NCBI GenBank assembly: GCA_963759155.1
Contig: CAVWXX010000027.1
Location: forward strand, 136,144-200,143
Source of the DNA: an uncultured Gammaproteobacteria bacterium
GTDB taxonomy: Bacteria; Pseudomonadota; Gammaproteobacteria; Xanthomonadales; SZUA-36
Direction: 5' to 3'
Length of the DNA stretch: 64,000 nucleotides
The number at the start of each line of letters is the position of its first letter. Positions within the stretch are counted from its first letter, which is position 1. Positions 20,687 through 44,623 of this stretch are shown here, piece by piece. Made by a program: the position numbers and the translations under genes. Below the pieces are notes generated by a model. That model searched no databases and had not been told where the DNA came from. It saw only the letters and a program-made list of their open reading frames with translations.

Positions 20687-20762
20687 ATCAGTTCTGGCCC
20701 GCTGTGCGTGTTATTTGGCTGGTTGGTCTGGCAAACATGGGTTTCAAAAACTGCCGGACAGT

Positions 20763-21680: not shown

Positions 21681-21699
21681 CGGGTGTACTCAACGCGCC

Positions 21700-22725: not shown

Positions 22726-22759
22726 GTGTCTGTCTACCGATGGGTTAATGGTTGGGTTT

Positions 22760-23527
22760 TCAGCGTTGAATTAACAGGCCGGCGGTGAGACCGCCATCTA
22801 TCGGAATAATGCTACCGGTGATGTAACCTGCAAGCGGTGAAAACAGGAAGCTGGTTAATGCACCAACCTCTTCGGGTTGCGCAAAACGACGCAAGGGTAT
22901 CTGGCTTTCCAGTTTTTCACGGTAAGACGCGTAAGGCGCCAAAAGCTCAGTATCGACGTAGCCCGGTGCAATATAATTGGCAGTAACACCCTTACGGGCC
23001 ATCTCCACAGCCAGTGTTCTGATATAGCTCAGCATCGCACCTTTGCTGGCAGAGTAAATAGCATTCCCTGATACGGCCAATTGGGAGGTTACCGAGCCCA
23101 TTGCAACAATCCGGCCGCCTTTGGCGCGCATCAATGGTCTTGCAGCGGCGCCGGCAAGCCGGGTCATTGCCCAGAAATTCAGTTGGAACAGCGCCTCTGC
23201 CTTGTCCTGGTCGGCCAATGCGGCGAGCGTGTCGTAAGAACCGCCTGCGTTGTAAACCAGGCCATAAAGTGATTCGGTTGCACCGATTGTTTTTGCAAAT
23301 TCATCCACCTGCTCCCGGTCAGACAAATCAACCTGGTAACTGGAGATAGTTTGCTCTGGATAGTCGGCCTGAAGTTCTTTACAAGCCTGTGCCGCTGCGT
23401 CGGCTGAGCCCCGATAGGAAAACGACACATCATAACCATCCGCAGCCAGCGCCTTGACGATACCGAGCCCGATACCCTTGGCGCCACCGGCAACAAAGAC
23501 TGTTTTTCCGTTTGCTGGATTAGTCAT
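22760..23527 (-). CDS. 3-oxoacyl-ACP reductase-like SDR
   Basis: GGAKGIGLG and YSASKGAM motifs. ATG at 23527 is preceded by an AGGAGA Shine-Dalgarno; the track start at 23569 is an extension. Confidence 0.85.
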   Translation of the reverse strand: MTNPANGKTVFVAGGAKGIGLGIVKALAADGYDVSFSYRGSADAAAQACKELQADYPEQTISSYQVDLSDREQVDEFAKTIGATESLYGLVYNAGGSYDTLAALADQDKAEALFQLNFWAMTRLAGAAARPLMRAKGGRIVAMGSVTSQLAVSGNAIYSASKGAMLSYIRTLAVEMARKGVTANYIAPGYVDTELLAPYASYREKLESQIPLRRFAQPEEVGALTSFLFSPLAGYITGSIIPIDGGLTAGLLIQR

Positions 23528-23538
23528 TTGGCTGTCTC

Positions 23539-24849
23539 CTATGAAGGTTCTGCCGAGAAGATCAGGCATACATTCTGGCCGCCAAAACCGAAAGAGTTGG
23601 ACATTACTGAATTAACAGTCTTGATCCTCTTCTCATTGGGAACGACATCCATCAGGATGTTCGGGTCCTGCTCATTGCAGTTGATAGTCGGAGGAATCAC
23701 GCCGTTTTGTATAGTCAACAGCGAAATGGCGGCCTCAATGGTGCCTGCTGCACTCAGTGTATGACCAATCATCGATTTATTTGAACTGATCGGTGTATTC
23801 TCAAGTTCATCGCCGAGTGCCGCCGACAGCGCCAGAAACTCCATCTTGTCATTTTCCGGCGTACTGGTGCCATGTGCATTGATACAATCAATTTCGGCCG
23901 GCGACATACCGGCGTCAGCCATTGAGCGTGTAATCGTTTCAATAACTGCAGAGCCGTCCGGTGTGGAGCGGGTGCGATGGAATGTATCAGCACGCTCTCC
24001 TGCACCACGTACGACGCCGAGAATCTTTGCTCCACGCGCTTTCGCGCCTTCATAGGATTCCAGCACGAGTGTGGCTGAGCCTTCTGCCATCACAAATCCG
24101 TCACGGGCTTTTGAAAATGGCTTGGAGGCACCTTGCGGGTCATCGTTCTGGGTAGACAGGGCAGAGAGCAGGTTGAAACGTACAACCATTTCCTCGCAAA
24201 TCCCGCCGTCGGTTCCGATGCAAAGTGCCGCATCGGTATCTCCACGGCGTATGGCTTCAACACCAAGTTGTACCGATGTCGCGCCGGAGGCACAGGCGGT
24301 TGTTAATGAAATCGGCTGACCGCGGGTACCAAACTCGTCTGCCAGGTGTTCGGCGATGCTGGCGAACTGAAAAAGCGAATAATAGCGATCGAAATTGCCT
24401 GCCCGCACATTCTTCAACAGACGCTCGTACCCGGTCGTACCGGCACCGGCCTTTTCGTTGTAGACAACCATCCGCTGGTCCCAGTTGGTTTCTGCCGGAG
24501 AGTTAGCGACAAACAGCGGGCCAGGAAATGAACCCCGTGAACCGATACCGGATTGTTCGATGGCTTCGGCTGCGGATTTTTTGGCAAGACTGATAGAGTG
24601 TACCGGGGCGCAATAACGGCTATCACCTTGCCAGTCGATCGTGCCTGCAATCTGAGTGCGAAGCCCGTCGGTTGGGAAACGACTTATCTTGCGTACACCG
24701 GAAACGCCGGCGGTCAGGTTCTCCCAGTTATCTTCCTTGCCTTCACCGACCGAAGTAACAATGCCGATTCCGGTCACAACAACAACAGGACGGCCTTTAT
24801 GATCTTTTGCAGAATGACTCATGTTATTCATCTCCCCGCAATGGCGCAT
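23539..24849 (-). CDS. beta-ketoacyl-ACP synthase (FabF-like, catalytic)
   Basis: The Cys-His-His triad is present (TTACASGATS, NAHGTSTP, IGHTLSAAG). The start may instead be one of the internal Met codons at 24831 or 24822. Confidence 0.9.
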   Translation of the reverse strand: MRHCGEMNNMSHSAKDHKGRPVVVVTGIGIVTSVGEGKEDNWENLTAGVSGVRKISRFPTDGLRTQIAGTIDWQGDSRYCAPVHSISLAKKSAAEAIEQSGIGSRGSFPGPLFVANSPAETNWDQRMVVYNEKAGAGTTGYERLLKNVRAGNFDRYYSLFQFASIAEHLADEFGTRGQPISLTTACASGATSVQLGVEAIRRGDTDAALCIGTDGGICEEMVVRFNLLSALSTQNDDPQGASKPFSKARDGFVMAEGSATLVLESYEGAKARGAKILGVVRGAGERADTFHRTRSTPDGSAVIETITRSMADAGMSPAEIDCINAHGTSTPENDKMEFLALSAALGDELENTPISSNKSMIGHTLSAAGTIEAAISLLTIQNGVIPPTINCNEQDPNILMDVVPNEKRIKTVNSVMSNSFGFGGQNVCLIFSAEPS

Positions 24850-26062
24850 CGGGTTTATCTACGAGTGCCAGGCTTTCACCCCGCCAATGTCCCCAGTTAC
24901 TTATCAGGACGCTTTCCGGTTGACCGGAAAACACTTTCTCAGCACCGGACTCATCAAACGGATCAAAGAAGGAGCCTTTCGAGATCGCCAGTGATGCCAG
25001 GATGACACTGAGGGGAAGCTGTGCTTCGAGGGTATTACCAAACAGGGTTGAGACACCGCGAATCGCGGGATCGATGCCATGGTCAGACAATCCCTTCAAA
25101 AAGTCATGTTCTTCATTAAGTTGAGGTTGTACACCACAACAACCCGATAATACGGGTAATGGCCCCTTTGGAACCTGGTCGCTGACTTGTTCAAACAGAC
25201 TGTCGGCCACTTGGCGGGCAGCACCGGCTTGCCTGTTACAGCGGTCCGATACGACCTTATTGATACGCGCATATGGCTTGGCACCACGGGCTTCGGCGTG
25301 TTGACGTGACTCAAGGATCAGGAAAGCACCTGCGCTGCCCATCACCATGCCACCGTCGGTATCCTCGCGTGACCAGACTGAACCAGGCTCGCCTTGCCAA
25401 AGCGTGTGATCAAATTCCATCAGCATCATCATGTCTGCGCGTTCGGCGATGTAAGCGCCACCGACAAGAAAAACTTCCCCCTGGCCATGTTGAATTTGTG
25501 CAACAGCCGTTTCAACGGCAGATACACCGGCAGATTCCTCGCCCATAAAAGTTCGTGATGAATCCGTGACGCCGTGAACAATGGATATATTGCCGGCCAT
25601 CAGGTTTGAAAGCTGTGCCAGGAACAGGGTAGGGCGTAACTCAGTATTCAGTGCCGCATTTAGAACCGGCCCGGGATTGTCAACACCATTGATTTTTTCC
25701 ATGATCGTGGTATCAACATCAAGATCACGTTCACCACCACCGGCCGCGATTATCATGTTGGTTGCCGCAAGAAGTTCGGGATTATGCGAAATGCCGGCAT
25801 CATCCAATGCCAGGCCGGCCGTATAAACACCAAGGTGTTGCCATGGGCCCATCTGGCGTTGGTCACTTCTCTTCGGAATTTGAGCGCCCACGTCAATATC
25901 CACAATCTTGTGAACCGGGTAAGGTGCCTGGTCTTCCATGTCTACAGGTGGTACGGGTACCTTGCCTGTGGTCATCTGCTCCCAGTGCGTATCAAGACCT
26001 TCGCCCAAAGAGCTTACAAGTCCGATCCCAGTGACCCAGACTTCTTTTTTTTCAATACTCAT
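24824..26062 (-). CDS. beta-ketoacyl synthase-like protein lacking the catalytic triad (CLF-like partner)
   Basis: KS fold (VWVTGIGLVSSLGEG). By hand alignment to the neighbouring KS, the active-site Cys position is Glu (MGEESAG) and both His positions are lost (GCCGVQ, FGNTLEA). Confidence 0.85.
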   Translation of the reverse strand: MSIEKKEVWVTGIGLVSSLGEGLDTHWEQMTTGKVPVPPVDMEDQAPYPVHKIVDIDVGAQIPKRSDQRQMGPWQHLGVYTAGLALDDAGISHNPELLAATNMIIAAGGGERDLDVDTTIMEKINGVDNPGPVLNAALNTELRPTLFLAQLSNLMAGNISIVHGVTDSSRTFMGEESAGVSAVETAVAQIQHGQGEVFLVGGAYIAERADMMMLMEFDHTLWQGEPGSVWSREDTDGGMVMGSAGAFLILESRQHAEARGAKPYARINKVVSDRCNRQAGAARQVADSLFEQVSDQVPKGPLPVLSGCCGVQPQLNEEHDFLKGLSDHGIDPAIRGVSTLFGNTLEAQLPLSVILASLAISKGSFFDPFDESGAEKVFSGQPESVLISNWGHWRGESLALVDKPDAPLRGDE

Positions 26063-26066
26063 TTTG

Positions 26067-26528
26067 TCACCCGGTTGATGATTGGCTGATTTGACTATAC
26101 CGATCAAGCATATTGTTTTTCAGGGTATCGTTTGGAAATGGCATGATCCGGAACATTAACTTGCTGTCACAGATCTTTTTGCCGTCACGCGAGATGCTTG
26201 CTTTGGTTGCTGCAAACCCGGAGCCGTCGTGTTCCAGTTTCGCCTCGACGCGAAGAACCTGTCCAGGTTCAACAAACGTACGCATTTTGGCACTGGTGAC
26301 ATTCGCCAGGAATGGCATCTTTTCGAATTTCATGCGGGATAGCAGCATAAAGCCGGACGCCTGCGCCATGGTTTCGATCAGGAGCACACCCGGGACCAGA
26401 GGCGACCCGGGGAAGTGTCCCTCGAAAACAGTGCTTTTCATCGGCACATCTGCACGTGCGATGATGCTGCCGTTATCGGGATCGAGATCCTCGACAGCAT
26501 CGATCATCTGAAAGTATTCGAGTAGCAT
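26067..26528 (-). CDS. 3-hydroxyacyl-ACP dehydratase, FabZ-like
   Basis: 153 aa with the hotdog motif FEGHFPGSPLVPGVLLIETMAQ. Confidence 0.85.
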   Translation of the reverse strand: MLLEYFQMIDAVEDLDPDNGSIIARADVPMKSTVFEGHFPGSPLVPGVLLIETMAQASGFMLLSRMKFEKMPFLANVTSAKMRTFVEPGQVLRVEAKLEHDGSGFAATKASISRDGKKICDSKLMFRIMPFPNDTLKNNMLDRYSQISQSSTG

Positions 26529-31416: not shown

Positions 31417-32049
31417 TCAGGAAACTATCCCATGCTTGACCGCATATTGGATTAATTCTGAATTGGATTTGACATCAAGGGTTTCCATGATCTGGTACTT
31501 ATGGAAAGCGACGGTCCTTGGCGTGATGTTCAATATTGCAGCGACCTGTTTCATCGTATTGCCCTCTGCAAGTAACTGCAGAACCTCGCGCTGGCGAATG
31601 GAAAGGTCACCGTGCACTTTATGAGTGCCCGGGTTTTTGATTTGCGCATCAGCCATGCTCTCGGCGAGTTTGGGCGAAACGTAAACCTTTGAATTAAGCA
31701 CAGCGTCGATGGCCTGAAATAACTCGGATGAGGCTGAACTCTTTAGCAGATACCCACTTGCCCCGATTCGTAAAGCCTCAGTCACCATGTCTGCATCTTC
31801 ATTGACGGTTAAAAAAACGAGCTTGGTGTCAGGCAGGATTTTTTTCAGTTTTTCGCCTGCGTCAAACCCGTTCAGGTTTGGCATGGCAATATCCATCAAG
31901 ACCAGGTCGGGAGCCAGTTTTGTGACCATTTTCAGCATCATGCGACCATCTGTCGCGGTTCCGACAATATCGTATTTTGTCTCAAGCAACTTACTGAATG
32001 CGTCCAGTAGAAGCGAGTGATCATCTGCTAAAAAAATGCGTGCACGCAT
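31417..32049 (-). CDS. response regulator transcription factor, NarL/LuxR type
   Basis: Receiver domain (DLVLMDIAMPNLNG) plus a LuxR-type HTH (LSIRQREVLQLLAEGNTMKQVAAILNITPRTV). Confidence 0.9.
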   Translation of the reverse strand: MRARIFLADDHSLLLDAFSKLLETKYDIVGTATDGRMMLKMVTKLAPDLVLMDIAMPNLNGFDAGEKLKKILPDTKLVFLTVNEDADMVTEALRIGASGYLLKSSASSELFQAIDAVLNSKVYVSPKLAESMADAQIKNPGTHKVHGDLSIRQREVLQLLAEGNTMKQVAAILNITPRTVAFHKYQIMETLDVKSNSELIQYAVKHGIVS

Positions 32050-32212
32050 TATTAAATATCCATGTTATTTCATCGCAATTGATACTATGCCATTTTGGGC
32101 CACTGACTGCACTACCCAAAACCGGGTATCGGATTAACTTTGACTCTGTTAAATAGTGAGTGCAACGATTATAGTCTGTATCTGTTCCCCGAAAGACAGC
32201 ATTTAAACCAGG

Positions 32213-32965
32213 ATGAATCTCGTGTCACAGTCTTCTGAAAAGCCAGAAACCGGATTAGGCCATATTCTTGTTGCCGAAGACGACGTGGTTGCCCAAATGG
32301 TCGTAAAGAAAATCGTTGAGCAGGCAGGTTATACGATGGACCTGGTTGGCGATGGTCAAGAGGCCGTCAAGGCACTCGAATCCGGGGATTATGATCTTGT
32401 ATTGATGGATTGTCTGATGCCCAGGATGAGCGGATTTGAAGCGAGTCAGATAATTCGCAATGCCGAATCCTCCGAGATCAATTCCAAGATTCCCATCATT
32501 GCGATGACGGGTTTGACGGAAGAGGAAGACCAGCAGCGCTGCATTGATGCCGGGATGTTTGAGGTGGTCAGTAAGCCATTTGGTCCAGAGGCACTGATTC
32601 CAGTGATCAGGCACTGCATGTCAAAAAATGAGGGAACAGATCTCGCATCAGAGCAGGCTGAAGTGGAAGAAAGTCAAACCTGGGACGATGGGTTTATCGA
32701 CAATGTCATTGATGAGTACCTGTCTGAAGTGCCACGTGTTATCGGTGACCTCCAACAAGCTATCGATGAAGCTGATGCAGACAAACTACGCCAGGTTGCC
32801 CATCGCTTTCGGGGGGCAACGGATTTCCTCAACGTTTCCGGGCTTTCCGCGCGTTCACGAGCCCTGGAGCACGCCGCTAGAGCAGGGGAAACCGAGCTGG
32901 CAATCACACACGCAACAGATTTAATAGAAGCCTTGCAAAAACTGTTGAATATGCTCACTGAGTAG
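32213..32965 (+). CDS. response regulator receiver domain fused to an Hpt phosphotransfer domain
   Basis: Receiver domain (ILVAEDD..., DLVLMDCLMPRMSG...KP), and a C-terminal Hpt motif AHRFRGATDFL. Confidence 0.8.
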   Translation: MNLVSQSSEKPETGLGHILVAEDDVVAQMVVKKIVEQAGYTMDLVGDGQEAVKALESGDYDLVLMDCLMPRMSGFEASQIIRNAESSEINSKIPIIAMTGLTEEEDQQRCIDAGMFEVVSKPFGPEALIPVIRHCMSKNEGTDLASEQAEVEESQTWDDGFIDNVIDEYLSEVPRVIGDLQQAIDEADADKLRQVAHRFRGATDFLNVSGLSARSRALEHAARAGETELAITHATDLIEALQKLLNMLTE

Positions 32966-32991: not shown

Positions 32992-33675
32992 CTATTGAAG
33001 TCCATTTTTTCGACTGACATAACGTTGTACGAATTTGACCAGAAGCTTTGCCAACAAGGGAAACGATGCCAGCAGGCATAAGGCGAGTATCAGGTCAGGT
33101 GAAAAAACCTCGGCGAAACTGAAGCTTTCGATATCACCCAGTTCATCACCCGTATAAGTGAGTATCAGCAATACCGGCATCATTCCGCAAAATGTCGCCA
33201 GCATGAAAACCGGAACCCGCATTGAAGTCAAACCCATGACGAGGTTCAGTAACCAGAACGGGATCACCGGAATCATTCTCAGGCCGAACAGATAAAAAGC
33301 GCCTTCTTTTTCAATACCCTTGTTAACCATTTCGATCTGACCTGTGAATCTTCTTTTGACCAGGTCGTAGAAAAGGAAGCGGGTGCTATAAAGCGCAACG
33401 GTTCCACCCAGCGTGGTGGCGGCGAGTGACAATGAAAATCCCGTCAGGGTGCCAAAGACGATACCACCGGCCAGGGTCAGAATTGCGGTAGCGGGTAACG
33501 AGCAACTGGTAGCGATAAAAAAAACGGTAAAAAAGACGGCAGCAGTTGCAACGGGTGAGCGTTCAAACAGCCCCTGGTACAGGTCGATACTGAAGTACTT
33601 TTCACCACCGCCAACAAAGTAGAGGATGATAATGGTGGCGATAAACAGCGCCAGGGCCAGCTTTTTTAGCGGCAT
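32992..33675 (-). CDS. TVP38/TMEM64 (DedA-related) family membrane protein
   Basis: 227 aa, multi-TM, with the family-typical G..FG.. and PVIPF segments. Confidence 0.7.
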   Translation of the reverse strand: MPLKKLALALFIATIIILYFVGGGEKYFSIDLYQGLFERSPVATAAVFFTVFFIATSCSLPATAILTLAGGIVFGTLTGFSLSLAATTLGGTVALYSTRFLFYDLVKRRFTGQIEMVNKGIEKEGAFYLFGLRMIPVIPFWLLNLVMGLTSMRVPVFMLATFCGMMPVLLILTYTGDELGDIESFSFAEVFSPDLILALCLLASFPLLAKLLVKFVQRYVSRKNGLQ

Positions 33676-33885
33676 ACTGATGTCTTATACATCCTTTTCT
33701 GTGTACGGGTGAACATCCCGTTGATAGAGGGAGCCAGTAGTATAGAAAGTATAAAAGGTCTTTGCCATGAAATCTGTACAACACGTTTGAATCATAAAAG
33801 GCTGCTTCTTGCACAAAATTGGACTCCCATTGTGGGTATGTTTCCAACATAATGTGTGCTGTCTTCAACCGGGAAAAATGATTAC

Positions 33886-34935
33886 ATGTCTAAGGTGTGG
33901 AGTTGTAATGAATGGGACCCATTGGAAGAGGTGATTGTTGGCAATCCGCTAAAGGCGCGGTTTCCCACAGCTGATTTAAGTACGCGGTTGGCGGAGTTCC
34001 CGGATCGCTCGCTGGCGGATATACCCCGGGGTCCATTTCCACAACAAATCATTGAGGAGACCGAAGAGGACCTGAATGCATTCGTTGAGGTTCTGCAGGC
34101 GCAGGGCGTCACGGTCAAACGTCCGGATACGTGGCCCCATGACAGGAAGTTTTCTACCATTCATTGGGAGTCTGAAGGCTACTACAACTACTGCCCCCGT
34201 GATGTCATGCTGGTCATCGGTGACACGATCATCGAAACACCCAACGTCATCCGTAGCCGTTACCAGGAAACCTTCAGCTATCGTTCATTGCTGATGGAGT
34301 ATTTGAAGTCGGGTGCAAAATGGTACAGCGCGCCAAAACCGATGCTGCTCGACTCGTTATTCGATGTTGATCTGGGCAAACCCACACCGCGTAATGATGA
34401 ACCGGCTTTTGATGCAGCGAATGTTCTGCGTCTTGGCCGGGACCTGATCTACCTGGTCAGTGCGACCGGTAATGAACTGGGCGGGCAATGGTTACAGACG
34501 ATGCTGGGTGATCAATTCCGGGTTCACTTTCTCAAAGATGTCTACTATGGCAGCCATATTGACTCAACATTCGTTGCCTTGCGGCCTGGATTGATACTCT
34601 GTAGCCCGGGTCGCGTTAACGACGATACCCTGCCGGAAGTTCTCAAGCAGTGGGAAGTGATTTACAGTCCGCCGATGGAGAATACAGGTGGATTCGATGC
34701 GGACTATCTTTCCAGGAGCATCGGCAGCAAGTGGATTGATATGAACCTGTTCAGTATTAATCCGAACCTGGTGGTGGTCGACCGCGATCAGACAGCGCTC
34801 ATTAAACTACTTGAGAAGCACGGTCTTGATGTGATTCCTTTGAAATTACGACATTCCAAAATGCTGGGTGGCGGTTATCATTGTGTAACGCTGGATACAC
34901 GACGAAAAGGAACGATGCAACGCTATTTCGATTGA
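33886..34935 (+). CDS. amidinotransferase (glycine/inosamine-phosphate amidinotransferase family)
   Basis: 349 aa counted from ATG 33886. N-terminal NEWDPLEEVIVG, the catalytic His context GSHIDSTF, and the catalytic Cys context GGGYHCVTLDTRR are all present. Confidence 0.85.
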   Translation: MSKVWSCNEWDPLEEVIVGNPLKARFPTADLSTRLAEFPDRSLADIPRGPFPQQIIEETEEDLNAFVEVLQAQGVTVKRPDTWPHDRKFSTIHWESEGYYNYCPRDVMLVIGDTIIETPNVIRSRYQETFSYRSLLMEYLKSGAKWYSAPKPMLLDSLFDVDLGKPTPRNDEPAFDAANVLRLGRDLIYLVSATGNELGGQWLQTMLGDQFRVHFLKDVYYGSHIDSTFVALRPGLILCSPGRVNDDTLPEVLKQWEVIYSPPMENTGGFDADYLSRSIGSKWIDMNLFSINPNLVVVDRDQTALIKLLEKHGLDVIPLKLRHSKMLGGGYHCVTLDTRRKGTMQRYFD

Positions 34936-34970
34936 ATGCTTTGCTCTAAATTGACGATCACATGAGCTGA

Positions 34971-37900
34971 ATGATGACAGCAATCAGCACGCTATCCGTC
35001 TTCCTGGCCTTTTTTTTATTGGCCTTCGCTGCGTGGCGACGCTACCTCTGGGTGGCGCAGAGGGAGTCTGATGCACAGGAAGATAACTGCCCATACAGTT
35101 TGACCGAAGTCTTTAGCGACAGGCATCTGATTAGCGTGCCGCACCAGAAGGGAGTGCGCTGGTTAACGGATGTCTTTAGTCGCTCCGCCAGAAAATTCCC
35201 CGATCATACCGCCTTGCAGATTCCCCATACGGGCGAGTCGCTGACCTACGCTGAACTTGACGAGCGTGCTGAACAAGTGGCTTTTGCGTTGTCACCCTAC
35301 CTGACTGGTCCTGACCAGGTCGTGGCAGTGGCCATGTCACAGGACAACTGGCAAATCGTTGCTTCCCACCTCGGTATTCTCAAGGCTGGCGGAACATTGA
35401 TGTTCCTCGACACCAGTCTGCCTGAAAGCCTGATTACCCACATGCTGGAAGACGCGAAGCCGGTGGTCATTCTTACCCGCGGTGAAGATAAGTTTCGCGA
35501 CCTGCCGACAGTGGATGTACTGAATTTGCCCAAAGAGAGGCCGCGCCGGGAGGCGCCACATTGGCTGGATGATCCTGAACAGCGGCTTGCAACCATTTTC
35601 TATACGAGTGGTTCTACCGGCATGCCAAAGGGCGTGGAGTGCCATCATGCGGGCTACGTTAACCTGGCACTAAGCTACGCTGATTATCTTGATCTCATAC
35701 CGGGTATGGATGCGACCACGTTGACGTCTTCACTGGGTTACGATGGCAGTATATCTGAGATGTACAGTGCCTGGGTGTCCGGCTGTGCGGTGGTTTTACT
35801 GACCTCAGATGAGGTCCGGTCCGGTCCTGACTTACTGCCGGTTCTTCGTGCAGCAGAGGTTACCGTTCTGTTCTGTCCGCCGGTGTTGCTGACCACACTG
35901 TCACATGAGCCGGAGGTGGATTTACCTTATCCCTTGTGCCGCTACATTATTCCGGCTGGTGAGGCGTTTCCCGCTGCACTGGTGGAGCCCTGGACCCGTG
36001 CCAGGCGGCAGGTGATTAATACCTATGGGCCTACAGAGGCGAGCACAGATACCAGCCGGCAGAGCTTGCGTCCGGGTGAGCCCGTTACGATCGGTTCGCC
36101 GTTGGCCAATGTCACCTACGTGATACTTGAGATCGACAAGCTCACGCCACTCCCACATGGCGAGACCGGTGAACTCTGTATCGGTGGTGTACATGTTGGT
36201 CGTGGCTACCGTAACCTGCCGGAGCAAACCTCCGCAAAGTTCATCACGCATCCGCAGTTTGGCCGGCTCTATCGCACGGGCGATAAATGTAAGATTGACG
36301 CTCACACACAACGCGTGCACTTCCTCGGCCGTATCGACACACAGCTCAAGGTTCGGGGACACCGTGTTGAAGTCCAGGCCGTTGAGGACATTCTGCAGAC
36401 TCAGATCCATGAGGTCGAGTCTGCTGTGCTTGATTATCAAAATGGGGAACTGGTCGCATTTGTCGTCGCGCCTTTGATTTCAAATCCAGAAATGCATAAT
36501 GCCGTCCCGGCCCCTGAGGCGTGGGCCGCCCGAACCACGGAAATTCTTGCGAGGCAACTGCCATCTCCATCGGTTCCTTCACGAATTTTTCTGGTCGACA
36601 ATTTTGTCATGAAACCCCTGTCAGGCAAGATTGACCGGGAACACTTACCCAACCTGTCCGGGCTGTTGAAGCGTGCAGGGGGGGATGCAAAGGATAGTTA
36701 TCACCCAATACAAAGCAGCCATCAGGACGAAGGGCAGGGCCCGGTTTCTGAAGTCAGCGCAGCCATCAAGCCAGGTGATAAGGAAGTGTTAGCGATCTGT
36801 CGACAGGTATTCGATACCCCACTGGGCTGGGATGATGTGTTTGCAGATAATGGCGGGCATTCGATCGTGATTGCCCAACTCGCTCAGCGGCTACAGGCTG
36901 CCGGGTGGCAGGTGCCGGTGCGCGCGCTTCTCAGTGATTGTGATACCGCACGTAAGATTGTCAATCGGCCAGGAGAGACGCAATCAACGACTGATTCACC
37001 TGCGAGCAGTGCTCACTTTGGGAAACATGGTGGTCAACGTGATGAGGTCGCAGCAAAAGTGTTATCCCCCGGGTATTTCACCATGCTGCAGGCGTTGTTC
37101 CTGGCATTATTATACGCACCGCCATTGGTCGGCTTTTTGGGGTTGGTCGCGTTCTCGGAAGTTGGCGAGTTCTTTATGACCGGCTTGCTTTGGGAGTTTA
37201 TTGCTGTTGGTTTCCTGATGTACCTGGTTGCCCTTGTCTATCCGTTTGCGAATTTACTCTGGATCATGTTCATCAAGCTTTGCATGGGGGGGCATATTTA
37301 CAGGAATAATGTGACACCGGGTGTGTACCCAAAGTGGAGCAGGATGCACCTTCGTACCTGGTGTGTCGGACGCTTGGAGCAGTCGGTGCTCCGACCAATG
37401 GGCACCTTTTTTCGCAGTGCGCCACTCATGGCATATGTTTTACGGCGACTTGGTGCGCGCGTGGGACGTAATCTCCAATGTGCCTCTGACGTAGAATTCT
37501 TCGGGCCGCTGGACTTACTCTCCATCGAAGATGATGTCGCTATTCAGGCGAGGGCCTATATTCACATGTTGAGATGGGTCGGGCAGGATTTGCATATCGG
37601 TCCCGTATACCTCGGCAGCGGTTGTAAGATCGGTATGCGTTCGGGGGTTGCCAACGATGTAACGGTCGGCCGTGGTAGCTGGATCACTCCATTCACACCC
37701 ATCCTTGGTGACGTGGGCGCAAATGAATTATGGGAAGGCTCTCCAGCCAGGCTCAGTGGCCGTTGCACGGCAATGAAACGCACCGCTAGCCACTGCCGGT
37801 ATACGTTGCCAATATGGCTACTGGAAACGCTGAACATTTTTATGCAGGTTTTCTTTGAATTCTGCCTTGTCGTTGTACCAACAGCCCTGGTTACCTGGTT

Positions 37901-39248
37901 TGCCACCAGTTTCATACCCGTCAGGGAGACGGCACAGGCGAGCGAATATTTCAAAATAACGCCATTGCAAGAAATCGTGTGGCACATGGGGCTTTATGCG
38001 TTTCTGACGACCTGGGTCAGCATCGTTTTGATCTCGATACTGGGTAGTGTCTTTTTGCGCTTCACGGCCGCGTCGCCAGGCTTGTATTCCTCACGTGGGC
38101 TCAAAACTGCTCTGTTGATGTACAGGATGAAAAAGCTGAACTGGATTCAACAACAGTGGACCTGGACCATTACCGGGCAGTATCTGCGCGCGCTCGCTGG
38201 CTTGCGTTTTACTCGGGTGGGTGCCTCGGAGTGCGACGTCATGTTCAATCTTGTCCCGGAAGCTGCCAGTGCCGATGCCAAGGTGTTCTGGTCCAATGGC
38301 TGTTTTACCAACATGCTGGATTACGGTGCTGAGCACACAGAGTTGCGCCAGCTTGATATGCCTTTGAATTTCTTTAGTGGCAATAACAGTGTGGCGGAGC
38401 ACGGACGTTTACCCGCCAATTTCCTGTTGGGCGTCTCGACACCGGTAAGTGAAATACAGTTCAGGCGACAAATGCAGTCGCGCCCGGGTGAGCCGCTCAC
38501 GGTTGCCGGAAACCCGCCATTAAGATTTGCGAACGCAGACCCTGGTGCGGAGTGTGAAGCTGACAGGCTACCGACCCTGCCATTATTCCTGGCGCGTGTT
38601 TTTCTGAACGACATTTTCAGTATCGGAATCCTGCGTATTGCCAATGTGCTTGTTTACGTGATTTTGTACAGTGCACTATTAAGACTGGGAGGACACGTTC
38701 TCCTTAGTGCCTTGATTGCCCTGGCGCTCACAGAGCTGACGTTGATCATGGCCTGTGTTGTGATCAAGAAGTTTCTCGTGGGGAGCCATTGGGGCTCGGA
38801 TCACTCAACTCCGTTCTGGTCCTGGCGGCACTTCAGTTATTTCTTCGCTCAGGATTGTTTCTTTGCCTGGTGCAGGATTTTCCTGAGATTTGCAGCTGGA
38901 ACCGTGCTGACGAATCCTGTCTTGAGGTGGATGGGCTGTAAAATTGGTAAACGAACCATTGTCAGTTCACCGATGCAGGCCTCCGATTGGAACGCGGTAA
39001 AATTTGGCAACGACTGTGTGGTTGCGGGCTTTCTGCAATTCCATACCTTTGAGAATATGACCTTGAAGTTGAAATTGACCGATATACAGGATGGCAGTGC
39101 CGTTAACTTTGGTGCCACGGTCATGGGTGGTGCAGTCATCGAATCAGAGACTAATCTGGAGCCATTGTGCATGGTTTTGAAGGAGATGCACCTACAGCCA
39201 GGTACTTACGAAGGCAGCCCCGCTGAACGGGTGGATAGTTACAGATGA
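34971..39248 (+). CDS. Pls/PosA-family membrane-embedded single-module NRPS (A-T plus three TM-flanked terminal domains)
   Basis: A-domain cores FYTSGSTGMPKGV, NTYGPTE, YRTGDK, GRIDTQLKVRGHRVE and PLSGKIDR. T domain DNGGHSIVIAQL. No C or TE domain. The C-terminal ~700 aa alternates hydrophobic helix pairs with three soluble hexapeptide-like segments. Confidence 0.85.
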   Translation: MMTAISTLSVFLAFFLLAFAAWRRYLWVAQRESDAQEDNCPYSLTEVFSDRHLISVPHQKGVRWLTDVFSRSARKFPDHTALQIPHTGESLTYAELDERAEQVAFALSPYLTGPDQVVAVAMSQDNWQIVASHLGILKAGGTLMFLDTSLPESLITHMLEDAKPVVILTRGEDKFRDLPTVDVLNLPKERPRREAPHWLDDPEQRLATIFYTSGSTGMPKGVECHHAGYVNLALSYADYLDLIPGMDATTLTSSLGYDGSISEMYSAWVSGCAVVLLTSDEVRSGPDLLPVLRAAEVTVLFCPPVLLTTLSHEPEVDLPYPLCRYIIPAGEAFPAALVEPWTRARRQVINTYGPTEASTDTSRQSLRPGEPVTIGSPLANVTYVILEIDKLTPLPHGETGELCIGGVHVGRGYRNLPEQTSAKFITHPQFGRLYRTGDKCKIDAHTQRVHFLGRIDTQLKVRGHRVEVQAVEDILQTQIHEVESAVLDYQNGELVAFVVAPLISNPEMHNAVPAPEAWAARTTEILARQLPSPSVPSRIFLVDNFVMKPLSGKIDREHLPNLSGLLKRAGGDAKDSYHPIQSSHQDEGQGPVSEVSAAIKPGDKEVLAICRQVFDTPLGWDDVFADNGGHSIVIAQLAQRLQAAGWQVPVRALLSDCDTARKIVNRPGETQSTTDSPASSAHFGKHGGQRDEVAAKVLSPGYFTMLQALFLALLYAPPLVGFLGLVAFSEVGEFFMTGLLWEFIAVGFLMYLVALVYPFANLLWIMFIKLCMGGHIYRNNVTPGVYPKWSRMHLRTWCVGRLEQSVLRPMGTFFRSAPLMAYVLRRLGARVGRNLQCASDVEFFGPLDLLSIEDDVAIQARAYIHMLRWVGQDLHIGPVYLGSGCKIGMRSGVANDVTVGRGSWITPFTPILGDVGANELWEGSPARLSGRCTAMKRTASHCRYTLPIWLLETLNIFMQVFFEFCLVVVPTALVTWFATSFIPVRETAQASEYFKITPLQEIVWHMGLYAFLTTWVSIVLISILGSVFLRFTAASPGLYSSRGLKTALLMYRMKKLNWIQQQWTWTITGQYLRALAGLRFTRVGASECDVMFNLVPEAASADAKVFWSNGCFTNMLDYGAEHTELRQLDMPLNFFSGNNSVAEHGRLPANFLLGVSTPVSEIQFRRQMQSRPGEPLTVAGNPPLRFANADPGAECEADRLPTLPLFLARVFLNDIFSIGILRIANVLVYVILYSALLRLGGHVLLSALIALALTELTLIMACVVIKKFLVGSHWGSDHSTPFWSWRHFSYFFAQDCFFAWCRIFLRFAAGTVLTNPVLRWMGCKIGKRTIVSSPMQASDWNAVKFGNDCVVAGFLQFHTFENMTLKLKLTDIQDGSAVNFGATVMGGAVIESETNLEPLCMVLKEMHLQPGTYEGSPAERVDSYR

Positions 39249-39346: not shown

Positions 39347-39376
39347 AAAAAAAAGGCCGTCATACCCGACGGCCTT
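39347..39376 (-). terminator. Rho-independent terminator of the 39398-39781 gene (a hairpin also sits downstream of the NRPS gene)
   Basis: 9-bp stem AAGGCCGTC / GACGGCCTT with a 6-nt loop. The plus-strand A8 run gives a T-tract on the minus strand. Confidence 0.7.
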
Positions 39377-39397: not shown

Positions 39398-39781
39398 TTA
39401 TTCAACCATTCCACCTTCCCATAAGGAGGATTCACCACAGTTTGCAATTTTGAACAATTCATCATCTATTTCCACAAGCACGGATGTGTCGTAAGCATCT
39501 GTAAAAGCACCCCACTCAGCAAAATTAGGTGTGATTATCACAAATTTAAAATCAAACTCAGAGACTGCGGCAGCTACAGGGTGCCTGATTGCAATTTGTA
39601 GGTTTTCACCGCCTTTTAATGTTTTTGCTGCCTTGAGCCATTTGCTGGCCATGTTCATAACATCATCTTCGGTTGCATCACCTTCATAGGTGCAGTTAAA
39701 AATCTGTATTGTTTCTGAATAAACCGGAGCAGCAAAGACCATTAACATGGAAATAGCCATAACTCGTATCAAAGTTTTCAT
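39398..39781 (-). CDS. small secreted hypothetical protein
   Basis: 127 aa counted from ATG 39781, which has an AAGGAGA Shine-Dalgarno. Signal peptide MKTLIRVMAISMLMVFAAPVYS. GC is visibly lower than in the flanking genes. Confidence 0.55.
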   Translation of the reverse strand: MKTLIRVMAISMLMVFAAPVYSETIQIFNCTYEGDATEDDVMNMASKWLKAAKTLKGGENLQIAIRHPVAAAVSEFDFKFVIITPNFAEWGAFTDAYDTSVLVEIDDELFKIANCGESSLWEGGMVE

Positions 39782-40208
39782 CTCGTGGTTCTCCTTGGGG
39801 TACAAAAAATATTTCATGCTACGGGCCTTGAAGGGTGTTTACACCGCCCGGAATCGTAACGCTGATCAATTCGCTGACGTGTTTTATAATAAAGCAAAAC
39901 AAGCACTTTTGCTTCTAATCATTATATAGATGCAAGATTCACTGACCCGCCTTTTAGACAAGGGCGCCATGGCGAACAGCTCGTCCCAAAATATTTCTGT
40001 TGTCATCATTTGTACCTTGATCTAAGGTCGCAGGGCTTCATTTCAGGCGTTAATCTGAACCAGGCGATAATTGAGTGGATGCACTACCAAAGCACCTGCT
40101 GCCACGTGAAGGAGCACTAGCACCGTTAACATACAAATCAACGATATTTTTGCCAGCGGTTCGCGAAACCTGACACCGGCATCGGTGCCTGGGACCCATG
40201 TCCGGTAT

Positions 40209-40856
40209 ATGCCATTCAGGTCTGATCCGGTTTTTTCGAGTTTATGTGCTTCGGTGTTATCCACAGAAGAAATTCAAAGATCGGAGCGATTTTCGGGCGA
40301 GGCTGACAGGACCCATTTTCTGCAGCGTCGTGCGTTTCGGCGCTATTGCGGTGTCATCGCGCTTGACTCGCAACGGCCTTTATCAAAGGTCGTTTTTTGT
40401 GAAGCAAAAAATGGGCGACCTTTCATTTCTGATTTACCGGATCTCTGCTTTAGTTTTTCCTCCTGCCGACAGGGCTTCTTGGGGGCGTGGTCATTCAGCC
40501 ATGGGGTCGGTGTTGATATCGAAGATGACACCAGGGAACTTGAGGTTGCTGAACTTTCACAGCAGTATTTCCGGGGTTCTGAATCCTCAGTTATTGAAAC
40601 ATTCCAAGGTCTGCAGCGTCTGCGGGTTTTCTACCAATTCTGGTGCCTCAAGGAAGCTGCGCTGAAGTCTATCGGGGAGGGCTTGCCTTTTGGTCTGGAT
40701 ACGTTCGAATTTAAGCTAAAGCCAAATCTGCGTGTTGTTCGTGCGCCCGCCGGTCACGGCGGAGCAGGGCAATTTGAAGCCTGCCTGATCGAAGGGACTG
40801 ACAATTGTGCGGCGCTTGTCACCCGCAAACCTGCAATCTCTCCACTTTCGCCGTGA
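40209..40856 (+). CDS. 4'-phosphopantetheinyl transferase, Sfp type
   Basis: Motifs GRPF, FSFSSCRQG, GVDIED and FWCLKEAALKSIGEG. ATG at 40209; a GTG at 40185 is also possible. Confidence 0.8.
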   Translation: MPFRSDPVFSSLCASVLSTEEIQRSERFSGEADRTHFLQRRAFRRYCGVIALDSQRPLSKVVFCEAKNGRPFISDLPDLCFSFSSCRQGFLGAWSFSHGVGVDIEDDTRELEVAELSQQYFRGSESSVIETFQGLQRLRVFYQFWCLKEAALKSIGEGLPFGLDTFEFKLKPNLRVVRAPAGHGGAGQFEACLIEGTDNCAALVTRKPAISPLSP

Positions 40857-40863
40857 TTTCACT

Positions 40864-41685
40864 ATGACTCGTTCACCTTACATTGTCGACAACACCGATT
40901 GGCTTAAAACTGCCGCAATTATCCTGGTTACGATTGGCCACTTCGGTTATTTCTTCATTGAGAGCGCCGATTGGTGGAGTGTTGCCGGGCGTCTGGCGGC
41001 ACCGCCGTTCTTCTTCATGATTGGGTACGCGCGAAGCCGGACGATCCCGCTTCGTTGGATTGGGCTAGGGATTGCTCTGACCTTACTTGATAGCTGGAAC
41101 AATGATTGGGACTGGATGGCACTGAATATTCTTATAAGCTATGTGCTCATCCGGCTGATCCGCCCGAAGGTGCAGAATTTCCTGAAAGCATACCGATGGC
41201 TTGCTTTCGTGATCTTCATCGGCATACTTTTGGCCCTGCTGCCTCTATTCTCAAATGTTTTCGATTACGGCGCAGCAGGGTGGCTATGGGCTTTATTGGG
41301 CTTATGTCAGCGCATGTATCTTGAGCGTCGATCGCTTATCGATGATGTCGACACTTCCCAACGCCCATCTGCGGTCGTCTGCACAATACCTGAGAGCATA
41401 GGGCTGATGCGTCTGCTGGCATGCTTTGTTGCAGCCGTAGTTTACCTTTGGCATGAGCAGATCGAATTCTCGTTTACCGGGGTCCAGTTTACTGTTTTCC
41501 TTCTTGGCACCTGCCTGATGTCCTGGAGTCTGTGCCTGTTTCAACGTGCGCCGAGTCGTATCCAGCCAGGGAAATTCATGGGTAGTGCTTTGCACTTCAT
41601 CGGTCGGCACACGCTGGAACTTTATGCGATTCCGCTTGCCGGTTTCGAACTGATCATAGGATTGATACCTCAACTGGCCGGATGA
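40864..41685 (+). CDS. TraX-like polytopic membrane protein (putative acyl/acetyltransferase family)
   Basis: 273 aa. N-terminal WLKTAAIILVTIGHFGYFF and GRLAAPPFFFMIGY resemble TraX-family motifs. Starts 7 nt after the PPTase stop. Confidence 0.5.
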   Translation: MTRSPYIVDNTDWLKTAAIILVTIGHFGYFFIESADWWSVAGRLAAPPFFFMIGYARSRTIPLRWIGLGIALTLLDSWNNDWDWMALNILISYVLIRLIRPKVQNFLKAYRWLAFVIFIGILLALLPLFSNVFDYGAAGWLWALLGLCQRMYLERRSLIDDVDTSQRPSAVVCTIPESIGLMRLLACFVAAVVYLWHEQIEFSFTGVQFTVFLLGTCLMSWSLCLFQRAPSRIQPGKFMGSALHFIGRHTLELYAIPLAGFELIIGLIPQLAG

Positions 41686-41890: not shown

Positions 41891-44623
41891 CTAACGAACG
41901 GGTCTCGCATGTGCTGATCCACGCAGGATGGCATTCATAAAGATGACATTCAAGCCATCAAGATAGGCGCGTACATTCGGGTCCTGGGTAAAGCCGATCA
42001 CATATCCCTGGCCATTTTTTTGAGCCACGACAAATGGTTTGTAAGCCATTTGTTTCCGGTTCTGCTCCCACATGTAACCACTGGCAAGCAAATCATCTGC
42101 ATTGCCGAATACCGCGACATTGACACCCTTATCCATTTTCACCGGTGTATAAATGTCAGAACCCCTGACAAGTACATTCAGGGTAGGGGAGACACCTGCG
42201 CCAAGCCAGTGGTCAGGGTCGACGTTTGATTTGACCAGAACACCCGCCACTGAATCGGGGCTGCCTTTTTCCGGTGTGATGAGCGCCATGTAGTCATCGC
42301 TACTGGTCAGGTACTGGCCTTCAACAGTGGTTTCTTTCGATTTTTCATCGCCACCTTTACCATTTCCGTTGGATTTGACCTTTTCTTTATCCACTTCAAT
42401 AACCGCGTTCTCCCTGCGAATCGAGAGCAGGTCGATTTCGGGATTGGCCAGATAACGGTTGGCATTGCCAAGACCAATCAAAACACCGCCTTTTGCAACC
42501 CAGTCTTTCAGGTTGGCGGTGCCTTTTTCACCCAGTGCTTCTTCATAGTCACCACTCCAGCCAACTGCTGGCAGGATCAATACCTGGTAGCGGCTCAGGT
42601 CGGCCCTCTTAAGCTGATTCAAGCGGATCGCCGTCACGGGGAAGTCGAACTGCCGCTCGATGACAAAACGCGTGTTACCGGCGCTGTATGAAGAGGTGGG
42701 CTGATCCCAGGCGATAGCGACCCGGGGCGCATTGAACCTGACGACGTTTTCGCTGCCAAAATTCGGTCCGTCAGTGACCCAGCTGCTGTCGACCGATATC
42801 ACGGTGGCCCCGGTTGTTGCCGCAAGCTCAACGACGGTATCCGTCAGCGTATTGGAGTTATCCGCAACGTCGATGATCAGTGTGCCTGCCGGATAACGCT
42901 TGCCAGAATGTGTAAATGCCTTGTCAGAACTCTTGACATCAAGACCCTGCCTCAACGCGTTGGTCAAAAACCGGACGGCAGTGGCCGAGCCCCATGGCAC
43001 CAGGTAGGCAACCGGACCGCTTGCACCCGATACCTTGCCCGCTTGCACCAGTTCAGATCCCTGGGTGGTGAAGTTTCCGCTGATGCTGCGATTGCAGCTA
43101 TCGGCACGTACGTTCATCATCAGGGGCAGTGACCAGGCGGTTACGTCGTAAATTTCGTCTCTCAGGTTCTTGGCCCGACGGCGTTCCTGTTCAGCGAGGA
43201 AAGCTTTTTCCATCGGTACGTCGGTGTCCATCAGTGTGCGGATGAAGCGCTTTGCCGGCTGCGATGTGTTAATGACATAGCTGCCGGCCTTGTAGGATTC
43301 TCCACAGGCTTCGAAGGATGCGTCAGCACGTCCAACCTCGACACCCTGGCGAACCAACAGGCCAACCAGCTTGTTTGCCGCGGCCTGATCGAACTGCGTT
43401 GGCAGGATATAGGAGCGGATACTGTCGTTCTTTCCTTCTTCTATCGCACTGGCGCGGTAATTGTAAAAATCGGTAAGAAATTTCTGACGGTTTGTCACCA
43501 CCGCCTCAGCGGTGCTGAGTGATGTCACAAAGTGGTTGCGGATGGTGTAAGGGAAGCTTAAATCCTTGCCGTCATACTGCCTGACGATCAGCCCACGCGA
43601 TGACGCCTGTTCATAGGTCATGGAGATGCTGCCAAAGTACGACGGCCAGCTGGCACCATAGCCCGGATAAAACTCGTCAAATACCTCACGTGTGTAATAG
43701 TCCAGACCAAACGTATCAAACCAGCGGGCATTGTTTTGACCGAATATTTCGAGGCTTTCACGTTGGTTTGCAGCAAGGTGAGGGTTGTAAGGGGTGGCAC
43801 CTGGTGCAAAAAAGTAGGTGCTGTCCGAACCCATCTCGTGCGCGTCAACAAAGGCGACCGGATACCATTGCTGCAGGAGATCGACCCTGCCTTGTGTTTC
43901 CGGTTGTGTCAGGATGAACCAATCGCGATTCAGGTCGAAATAGTAGTGGTTGGTACGCCCGCCCGGCCAGGGCTCATTGTGTTCGGCGGAAAGCCTGTCC
44001 GAATCCGGCACCAGGCCTTCTGCAATCTCAAAGTGATGTATAAAGCGGTCACGGCCATCGGGGTTTTGCATCGGGTCAATCACAACGACGGTGTCGCGCA
44101 TGATATCGGCCACGCGCTTGTCACCGCGCGATGCAAGCAGGTGATAAGCGGTTAGCATGGCTGCTTCGGTGGATGAAATCTCGTTGCCATGAACACCGTA
44201 GGAGAGCCAGGTAATCGCAGGCTGGGTTTTGATGATCTCCTGTGCCTCGGCACGTGTGGTTTTGCGGGGATCAGCCAGGCGTTGCATATTGCTCTTGATC
44301 GTGTCGATACGGGCCATGTTCTCAGCGGATGTGACGACCGCATAAACAAGATCACGGCCCTCCCAGCTCTGTGCATAAGTCGCCACCGAGATACGCTCAG
44401 GTGAGGTTTCGGCAAGTGCTTCAAAATATCGGACCGCATCCGCATGCCAGGTGATACGTTCACCGGGCTCGTAGCCAAGGACAGCCTTGAAGGTGGGAAT
44501 GGCAGGGTCGTAATCTGCATCCGGCCAGTAAACAAAATCGTCACTGGCATTGCTGTAATTTGTAAACAGCAGACTGGCAAGAAGAATGAGGGTCATTCCG
44601 GTGCGTTGCAGAGTGGATTTCAT
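41891..44623 (-). CDS. secreted M14-family zinc carboxypeptidase-like protein
   Basis: 910 aa. Signal peptide and M14 zinc motif SYGVHGNEISSTE. Confidence 0.85.
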   Translation of the reverse strand: MKSTLQRTGMTLILLASLLFTNYSNASDDFVYWPDADYDPAIPTFKAVLGYEPGERITWHADAVRYFEALAETSPERISVATYAQSWEGRDLVYAVVTSAENMARIDTIKSNMQRLADPRKTTRAEAQEIIKTQPAITWLSYGVHGNEISSTEAAMLTAYHLLASRGDKRVADIMRDTVVVIDPMQNPDGRDRFIHHFEIAEGLVPDSDRLSAEHNEPWPGGRTNHYYFDLNRDWFILTQPETQGRVDLLQQWYPVAFVDAHEMGSDSTYFFAPGATPYNPHLAANQRESLEIFGQNNARWFDTFGLDYYTREVFDEFYPGYGASWPSYFGSISMTYEQASSRGLIVRQYDGKDLSFPYTIRNHFVTSLSTAEAVVTNRQKFLTDFYNYRASAIEEGKNDSIRSYILPTQFDQAAANKLVGLLVRQGVEVGRADASFEACGESYKAGSYVINTSQPAKRFIRTLMDTDVPMEKAFLAEQERRRAKNLRDEIYDVTAWSLPLMMNVRADSCNRSISGNFTTQGSELVQAGKVSGASGPVAYLVPWGSATAVRFLTNALRQGLDVKSSDKAFTHSGKRYPAGTLIIDVADNSNTLTDTVVELAATTGATVISVDSSWVTDGPNFGSENVVRFNAPRVAIAWDQPTSSYSAGNTRFVIERQFDFPVTAIRLNQLKRADLSRYQVLILPAVGWSGDYEEALGEKGTANLKDWVAKGGVLIGLGNANRYLANPEIDLLSIRRENAVIEVDKEKVKSNGNGKGGDEKSKETTVEGQYLTSSDDYMALITPEKGSPDSVAGVLVKSNVDPDHWLGAGVSPTLNVLVRGSDIYTPVKMDKGVNVAVFGNADDLLASGYMWEQNRKQMAYKPFVVAQKNGQGYVIGFTQDPNVRAYLDGLNVIFMNAILRGSAHARPVR

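Follow-up and report, generated by a model that had tools for sequence, protein, structure and literature searches.

Conserved pairing of a StrB1-like amidinotransferase with a divergent Pls-type membrane synthetase, and a candidate route to a guanidinium-rich poly(amino acid)

Few natural cationic homopoly(amino acid)s (CHPAs) are known, namely those of lysine, β-lysine, ornithine, 2,4-diaminobutyrate (Dab) and 2,3-diaminopropionate (Dap), and all of them bear plain amines. Pls, which makes ε-poly-L-lysine, and PosA, which makes δ-poly-L-ornithine, are nonribosomal peptide synthetases (NRPSs) in which an adenylation (A) and a thiolation (T) domain are followed by three repeats of a transmembrane (TM) pair and a soluble domain. 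The poly-Dap (PDAP) pathway of Streptomyces albulus PD-1 combines a cysteine-synthase-like and an ornithine-cyclodeaminase-like enzyme with a single-module A-T NRPS, the PDAP synthetase, whose three soluble C-terminal domains are set among seven TM helices (PMC4668381). We have analysed a stretch of DNA from an uncultured gammaproteobacterium (contig CAVWXX010000027.1, positions 136,144 to 200,143 of the forward strand), in which a gene for an amidinotransferase resembling StrB1 is followed by a gene for an NRPS with the layout of Pls, PosA and the PDAP synthetase. The window, as we use the word below, is the whole of this 64,000-nt stretch.

Amidinotransferases are known from other settings. 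The AGAT family works by ping-pong chemistry through a Cys-amidino intermediate, which the window enzyme presumably shares. Homoarginine, a guanidino amino acid used in peptide natural products, is the product of AmtA and McyK; the latter, which is annotated as StrB1, has been cited as a route to it (PMC12283262). StrB1 of Streptomyces griseus (1BWD), the L-arginine:inosamine-phosphate amidinotransferase, is encoded in an aminoglycoside cluster, its acceptor being a phosphorylated cyclitol, whereas the window enzyme is tied to an NRPS and to the enzymes SbnA and SbnB. For AmtA, CyrA, SxtG, HsvA, McyK and AGAT, we found neither an L-Dap acceptor nor a Pls-type partner in the literature. The preliminary description of this DNA had named no characterised Pls/PosA locus with an amidinotransferase; our searches of open-access full texts likewise yielded none, nor did they find any account in which an amidinotransferase accompanies a Pls-type synthetase or a guanidino-alanine polymer is described.

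The features of the core of the locus are as follows.

33886..34935, plus strand, StrB1-like L-arginine-type amidinotransferase of 349 aa (from the sequence, translation, PDB 1bwd match and residue positions)
34936..34970, plus strand, terminator-free spacer of 35 nt between the amidinotransferase stop and the NRPS start (sequence, fold, terminator scan)
34971..39248, plus strand, divergent Pls/PosA-type single-module NRPS of 1425 aa (Pfam, TIGR02353, hydropathy, pocket code)
35148..36710, plus strand, adenylation domain of this NRPS, with the pocket DGSFIATTDK (code derivation, comparison with published codes)
39353..39376, no strand assigned, strong GC-rich hairpin about 105 nt past the NRPS stop, z about -4.7 (folds, sequence)

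The first open reading frame (ORF) is best explained as the gene of a StrB1-like amidinotransferase, predicted to be active and cytoplasmic and dedicated to the divergent Pls-type membrane NRPS. It opens with an ATG at 33886 and closes with a TGA at 34933-34935, and the encoded protein of 349 aa begins MSKVWSCNEWDPLEE. The longest possible ORF would start with a GTG at 33856. Nearly all of the 120 close homologues listed are 349 aa long, however, and the ATG is therefore favoured over the GTG. A search of PDB sequences gave StrB1 (1bwd) as the best match (E 6.4e-111, residues 6-347), with about 51% identity across 338 aligned residues. AGAT/GATM, SxtG and HsvA belong to the same fold family but are more distant, at E about 1e-60 to 1e-65 (SxtG 4e-65, HsvA 4e-63, human AGAT about 1e-62 to 2e-62). 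Thus, the earlier assignment to the AGAT family holds for the fold family, far beyond chance, whereas the closest relative is of the StrB1 (inosamine-phosphate) type and not AGAT proper. The orthologues of the window enzyme form a tight group, at least 70% identical, that stands apart from StrB1. No cyclitol or sugar genes were found near the amidinotransferase gene; its neighbours are genes for the NRPS, a 4'-phosphopantetheinyl transferase (PPTase) and a TraX-like protein, together with SbnA and SbnB in relatives.

The catalytic residues are all in place. Asp106 (in PRD), Asp176 (in FDAAN), His224, Asp226 and Cys333 align with the matching residues of StrB1, with the StrB1 numbering of the literature for the triad and the Asp pair. 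Both the Cys-His-Asp triad (Cys333, His224 and Asp176) and the Asp pair that binds the guanidinium group (Asp106 and Asp226) are intact. The catalytic His and Cys motifs had been noted from the sequence, and both are present, as YYGSHIDSTF (with His224 and Asp226) and GGGYHCVTLDTRR (with Cys333), with the catalytic Asp now aligned to StrB1 as well. The window enzyme also shares with StrB1 its length and a short segment preceding the catalytic Asp, which is longer in AGAT, SxtG and HsvA. This shortened segment is reportedly what opens the active site of StrB1 to bulky acceptors. A signal peptide was not found in the amidinotransferase, which should therefore act in the cytoplasm.

The amidinotransferase matched no Pfam or NCBIfam model at E ≤ 0.001, and PF02274 reached 14.9 bits against a cutoff of 22.8. 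The missing match is a gap in the libraries, not in homology. The JGI label on this clade is 'N-dimethylarginine dimethylaminohydrolase'; with this label and no library match, a whole clade of amidinotransferases escapes current annotation.

Is the pairing of the two genes more than an accident of this contig? The co-occurrence survey that the preliminary description had suggested was carried out from both sides. A scan of one genome per species with the amidinotransferase gave 136 relatives, and the best 80 of these, with 79-95% protein identity, were taken for the survey of loci. The count of downstream genes was restricted to the 75 loci with at least 600 nt of downstream DNA. The NRPS is the next gene on the same strand in 72 of the 75, and these come from at least seven phyla. 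The gammaproteobacterial hosts include Halieaceae, Methylococcaceae, Sedimenticolaceae and a complete Halioglobus genome, deposited as Halioglobus sp. Uisw_031 (NZ_CP159826.1; locus L014), which carries the gene set. Alphaproteobacterial hosts include Hyphomicrobium, Rhodoplanes and Xanthobacteraceae, and further ones are found in Acidobacteriota, Verrucomicrobiae, Gemmatimonadales, Nitrospira and Desulfobacteraceae; many of the contigs are longer than 400 kb. There are three exceptions. The NRPS gene of locus L022 is convergent and 3 kb from the amidinotransferase gene; in L026, a TraX-like gene and an S41 peptidase gene adjoin the amidinotransferase gene, without an adjacent NRPS; and L033 has SbnA, SbnB and the amidinotransferase together, again without an adjacent NRPS.

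The reverse scan, of metagenomes with a sister NRPS (P0126), gave 40 loci with enough upstream DNA, and the amidinotransferase gene lies directly 5' of the NRPS gene in all 40, including 30 of 30 from the sister clade. In this sister clade, the C-terminal part of the NRPS is only 36% identical to that of the window, whereas the amidinotransferase is 70-74% identical. Automatic gene-family clustering of 85 loci was partly spoiled by long antisense ORFs in the GC-rich DNA, and targeted tblastn counts were used. The association is effectively obligatory in both directions. It is common to both NRPS clades and predates their split. We regard it as nearly certain that the amidinotransferase and the NRPS work together in some way, and the adjacency strongly supports the core of the original proposal, that the two enzymes cooperate to give a guanidino-modified monomer or polymer.

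Although the protein is 79-95% identical across phyla, the DNA identity of the amidinotransferase gene is only about 73-77% outside the close lineage of the window. The gene has about 50% G+C in loci of about 60% G+C (L018, L020, L022, L027, L047, L059, L069, L079 and others). The offset in G+C, together with high protein and low DNA identity, suggests horizontal spread combined with very strong purifying selection. Such breadth and conservation are unusual for a cluster that resembles those of secondary metabolism.

The arrangement in the window is consistent with a single transcription unit. As originally reported, the amidinotransferase gene ends 35 nt before the ATG of the NRPS gene at 34971, on the same strand and without an intervening hairpin: the predicted folding of the spacer region does not exceed that of shuffled sequence (z = 0.12), and a terminator scan of 34936-34970 found nothing. 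In most relatives, the gap is estimated at between -2 and about 140 nt. The first strong hairpin comes only after the NRPS gene. On the minus strand, this hairpin is followed by a run of eight U, and it is therefore read mainly as the terminator of a small gene on that strand; the transcript of the amidinotransferase and NRPS genes probably ends there too. With its terminator-free spacer and the hairpin placed only after the NRPS, the unit thus looks bicistronic in this window, and the two genes would be co-transcribed.

The NRPS is a single A-T module, with a GGHS attachment motif and without a canonical condensation or thioesterase domain. It begins with a TM helix (residues 1-23), followed by the A domain (about 60-580) and the T domain (605-665), and its hydropathy shows TM pairs at 703-773, 950-1036 and 1203-1271 that separate three soluble domains, which makes seven TM helices in all, the number described for the PDAP synthetase. 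Pfam recognises AMP-binding, PP-binding and a weak Hexapep match. TIGR02353, the model for the terminal domain of Pls and PosA, is covered from 37 to 695 of its 695 positions, at 147.7 bits (E 4e-43); the sister-clade NRPS scores 138.3 bits. The A domain is nearer to those of ordinary NRPSs (TycA, 218 bits) than to that of Pls (7wew, 130 bits). When the last 735 residues were searched against 1.84 billion representative proteins, the matches were the clade of the window NRPS (50% identity or higher), a single deep sister (P0126, 36%) and all other Pls-like proteins (25-30%). These gaps in identity place the NRPS on a deep, distinct branch of the Pls family. A PDB search with the C-terminal domain alone gave no match.

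What is the acceptor of the amidino group? In 50 of the 71 loci with enough upstream DNA, genes for a pyridoxal phosphate enzyme and an ornithine-cyclodeaminase-like enzyme lie directly 5' of the pair on the same strand. These enzymes come in two sequence types with no more than 33-41% identity between them, and both types exceed the NCBIfam equivalog cutoffs for SbnA (TIGR03945; 388 and 378 vs 350 bits) and for SbnB (TIGR03944; 376 and 382 vs 327 bits). In the sister clade, the SbnA/SbnB pair lies just 3' on the opposite strand, with SbnB over its cutoff and SbnA the top match at 269 bits; both sbnA and sbnB are present in 11 of the 19 sister loci with enough flank. SbnA and SbnB make L-2,3-diaminopropionate (L-Dap). 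L-Dap, whose SbnA and SbnB genes adjoin the pair in most relatives, is the likely acceptor; lysine, ornithine and Dab are probably not acceptors.

The substrate pocket of the A domain was read as ten specificity residues against GrsA. The MAFFT alignment has a gap at positions 8 and 9, and both were read from the ungapped register after the YGPTE motif. The code is DGSFIATTDK in the window and DGSFVATTDK in most relatives, and DGSF[I/V]ATTDK holds throughout about 69 NRPSs except for Pro at position 3 in six loci. The sister representative P0126 has the same code, and the A domains of the sister clade are only 55-58% identical to that of the window. The published codes are DMEHNGTVSK for the Orn synthetase PosA, DAESIGTVVK for Lys, DFECLSAVTK for Dab, DFEYVGTVTK for Dap and DGESVSVVNK for β-Lys (PMC10522769 Suppl. 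Table 2). The terminal amine is bound by a Glu at position 3, which all characterised CHPA synthetases share (PMC10522769 Suppl. Fig. 21), and position 2 gates the size of the substrate (PMC10522769). In the window A domain, Ser stands in place of this Glu, position 2 is occupied by Gly and position 9 by Asp. An Asp at position 9 holds the cationic group in canonical Arg, Orn and Lys pockets of NRPSs. The nearest full-length Pls-like outgroup (P0210, P0212, P0226, P0235, P0236 and others) has the pocket DSECYGGVTK, with the exception of P0199 (DVRCYAGMSK). The DSECYGGVTK type, from Bdellovibrionales and uncharacterised, showed weak activation of L-Arg and no activation of any diamino acid (PMC10522769). 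Three features of the window-type pocket, namely the missing amine-binding Glu, a Gly in the second position and its invariance, favour, without proving it, amidination at the stage of the monomer.

The system is best filed with the CHPA pathways, and the closest is the PDAP pathway, which has the same logic but no amidinotransferase, and whose pocket DFEYVGTVTK differs from DGSF[I/V]ATTDK. The hosts differ as well, being actinomycetes for PDAP and Gram-negative environmental bacteria for the window type. Compared with Pls and PosA, the window NRPS falls under the TIGR02353 cutoff, has an A domain nearer to ordinary NRPSs, is without Glu at position 3 and has an amidinotransferase as an obligatory partner.

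Three further genes in the window belong to the cluster.

39398..39817, minus strand, small secreted protein of about 127 aa with a signal-peptide-like N-terminus, here called h127 (translation)
40185..40856, plus strand, Sfp/HetI-type PPTase (Pfam ACPS, NCBIfam HetI-like)
40807..41685, plus strand, TraX-like multi-pass membrane protein, putative membrane acyltransferase (Pfam TraX, 30.9 bits)

h127 has no Pfam or NCBIfam match. Its homologues recur in the cluster in both NRPS clades (L097 6427-6807; L001 17061-17444), near the cluster in gammaproteobacterial loci and directly 5' of the amidinotransferase gene throughout the sister clade. The PPTase is found in 29 and the TraX-like gene in 35 of 55 related loci; the closest relative, L006, has no PPTase match. 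In the sister clade (L097 12255-13502) and in L022 (12286-13521), a DUF418/YeiB-like membrane protein replaces the TraX-like one. Both kinds of protein belong to the membrane acyltransferase-3 superfamily, and their presence is a hint that the product may be acylated outside the cytoplasm.

The pathway that we propose would start with the supply of L-Dap by SbnA and SbnB. The amidino group of L-arginine would pass to Cys333 and from there to an amine of L-Dap, with release of ornithine, and the resulting guanidino amino acid would most simply be 2-amino-3-guanidinopropionate, in which the side-chain nitrogen carries the amidino group. The A domain would adenylate this amino acid and load it onto the T domain. 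The C-terminal part, with its six helices and three domains, would then condense the units iteratively and release a guanidinium-rich polycation at the membrane. Outside the cytoplasm, the TraX- or DUF418-type membrane protein and the small secreted protein may act on the product. A monomer with a side-chain guanidino group would leave the α-amine as the sole good nucleophile, and the polymer would then be α-linked; whether the backbone is α- or β-linked would depend on which nitrogen receives the amidino group. We incline slightly towards this pathway as written, from amidination of Dap through activation to polymerisation at the membrane, its product being a prediction. More tentatively, and with somewhat less than even confidence, we suggest that the locus makes an undescribed, environmentally widespread guanidinium-rich poly(amino acid) of amidinated L-Dap, by means of a deep-branching Pls-type polymerase with a re-tooled A domain.

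Several observations weigh against this pathway. The score of the C-terminal domain, 147.7 bits, is far from the curated TIGR02353 cutoff of 423.1, and the polymerase activity is therefore assumed from architecture. A tblastn search for sbnA and sbnB across the 64-kb window found none, so the link to Dap rests on the relatives; on the proposed pathway, these genes would have to lie elsewhere in the source genome. The amidinated Dap units might be joined by α-peptide bonds, a linkage unprecedented for the Pls family and not known to be formed by any enzyme of it. In this window, the NRPS and PPTase genes are kept apart by the insertion of a minus-strand gene. Homology of the PPTase begins at about 40119, and there is no start codon before the GTG at 40185; compared with its homologues, the PPTase may be shortened at its 5' end. 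Finally, the StrB1-type shortened segment of the amidinotransferase would also fit an acceptor that is carrier-bound or polymeric.

This last point bears on the order of the steps. Amidination could instead follow loading or polymerisation, such that the NRPS activates L-Dap and builds poly-Dap, and a T-domain-bound unit or the nascent chain is amidinated inside the cell. The shortened segment may leave an open site that suits such bulky acceptors; the PDAP system operates with the same logic of SbnA/SbnB and a Pls-type NRPS; and the 79-95% conservation of the amidinotransferase across phyla could reflect a protein interface with the NRPS. However, the pocket departs from the Dap code DFEYVGTVTK, with Gly for Phe at position 2 and Ser for Glu at position 3. 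Furthermore, the amidinotransferase is predicted to be cytoplasmic, whereas Pls-type products leave at the membrane, and the gene order in most loci groups the amidinotransferase with the genes of monomer supply, as in L033, where SbnA, SbnB and the amidinotransferase stand together without an adjacent NRPS. We consider late amidination unlikely, though it deserves real weight.

Clearly improbable is a role of the NRPS other than as a polymerase, in which it would transfer a single cationic amino acid onto an acceptor in the envelope (lipid, lipopolysaccharide or exopolysaccharide), in a manner like D-alanylation and with the help of the TraX/DUF418 proteins. Its C-terminal domain is indeed under the Pls/PosA cutoff and only 25-30% identical to other Pls-like proteins, TraX or DUF418/YeiB membrane proteins do recur in the cluster, and the hosts are Gram-negative environmental bacteria, not classic antibiotic producers. 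On the other hand, TIGR02353 is matched end to end, the layout of TM and soluble domains equals that of proven polymerases, and no known member of this NRPS architecture behaves in such a way.

The preliminary description had also offered the supply of ornithine as a monomer, here for a PosA-like poly-ornithine synthetase, as one role of the amidinotransferase. Ornithine is an obligatory co-product of arginine-dependent amidino transfer in this family. However, DGSF[I/V]ATTDK is unlike the PosA code DMEHNGTVSK and is without the Glu that binds the δ-amine, ornithine is available from ordinary metabolism without a special supply, and the conserved SbnA and SbnB would be left without a role, all of which makes ornithine supply very unlikely. 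A chance neighbourhood of two genes, with the amidinotransferase engaged in an unrelated role such as the synthesis of a guanidino compound or osmolyte, could appeal to the three loci of 75 (L022, L026 and L033) without an adjacent same-strand NRPS, but it is rejected as effectively refuted by a pairing that persists, in 72 of the 75 loci surveyed from one side and all 40 from the other, through changing phyla and flanks, the more so as the NRPS of L022 is only 3 kb away and L026 and L033 keep other cluster genes beside the amidinotransferase.

If the proposed pathway, with amidination of L-Dap before activation, is true, a guanidino-bearing member of the CHPAs would represent new natural polymer chemistry, and the amidinated-Dap polymer would be, in effect, a short-armed natural polyarginine. 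Among cell-penetrating and antimicrobial motifs, guanidinium-rich oligomers are the classic one. The gene set has few members, is highly conserved and is found in at least 136 species-level genomes, of soil and marine origin, as well as in the complete Halioglobus genome, and the prediction is therefore directly testable.

Other genes accompany the pair in some of the relatives. A DUF3604 protein of about 640 aa is encoded beside or near the amidinotransferase gene in L001 (7876-9789), L007, L022 (7904-9823), L036 and L032, which are lineages unrelated to one another; the gene is absent from the window. In alphaproteobacterial loci, an S41-type peptidase gene lies just 5' of SbnA/SbnB or of the amidinotransferase gene (L026 3466-4464; L067 6361-7323), and this peptidase may process or degrade the product. 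The window and three related loci were scanned with Rfam, which gave no riboswitch or other known RNA and, in particular, no guanidine riboswitch; a tRNA scan found none. The surroundings of the cluster in the window are as follows.

19931-26107, minus strand, lipid/polyketide-type gene set that resembles aryl-polyene-like clusters, with the next five entries as members
19931-20686, minus strand, second PPTase of the window, Sfp-type
20763-21680, minus strand, lipid A-type acyltransferase
21700-22725, minus strand, zinc dehydrogenase
22760-23569, minus strand, short-chain reductase
23539-24849 and 24824-26107, minus strand, ketosynthase pair
31417-32965, LuxR-type response regulator and receiver-Hpt protein, beyond the DedA/VTT gene
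32992-33675, minus strand, DedA/VTT-family membrane protein, divergent from the amidinotransferase
41891-44623, minus strand, protein of 910 aa with an M14 zinc-carboxypeptidase domain, just past the cluster
45407-46534 and 47189-48475, two pyridine-nucleotide-disulphide oxidoreductases near the hydrogenase-like gene, unrelated to the cluster
49130-50620, minus strand, NiFe-hydrogenase large-subunit-like protein, unrelated to the cluster

The M14 protein is common only to the window and its closest relative L006, with 92% identity over the part that L006 covers. The arrangement of DedA/VTT protein, LuxR-type regulator and receiver-Hpt protein is kept only in the closest relatives, L001 and L006. 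The Sfp-type PPTase of the lipid/polyketide-type gene set could serve the NRPS if the local PPTase is defective.

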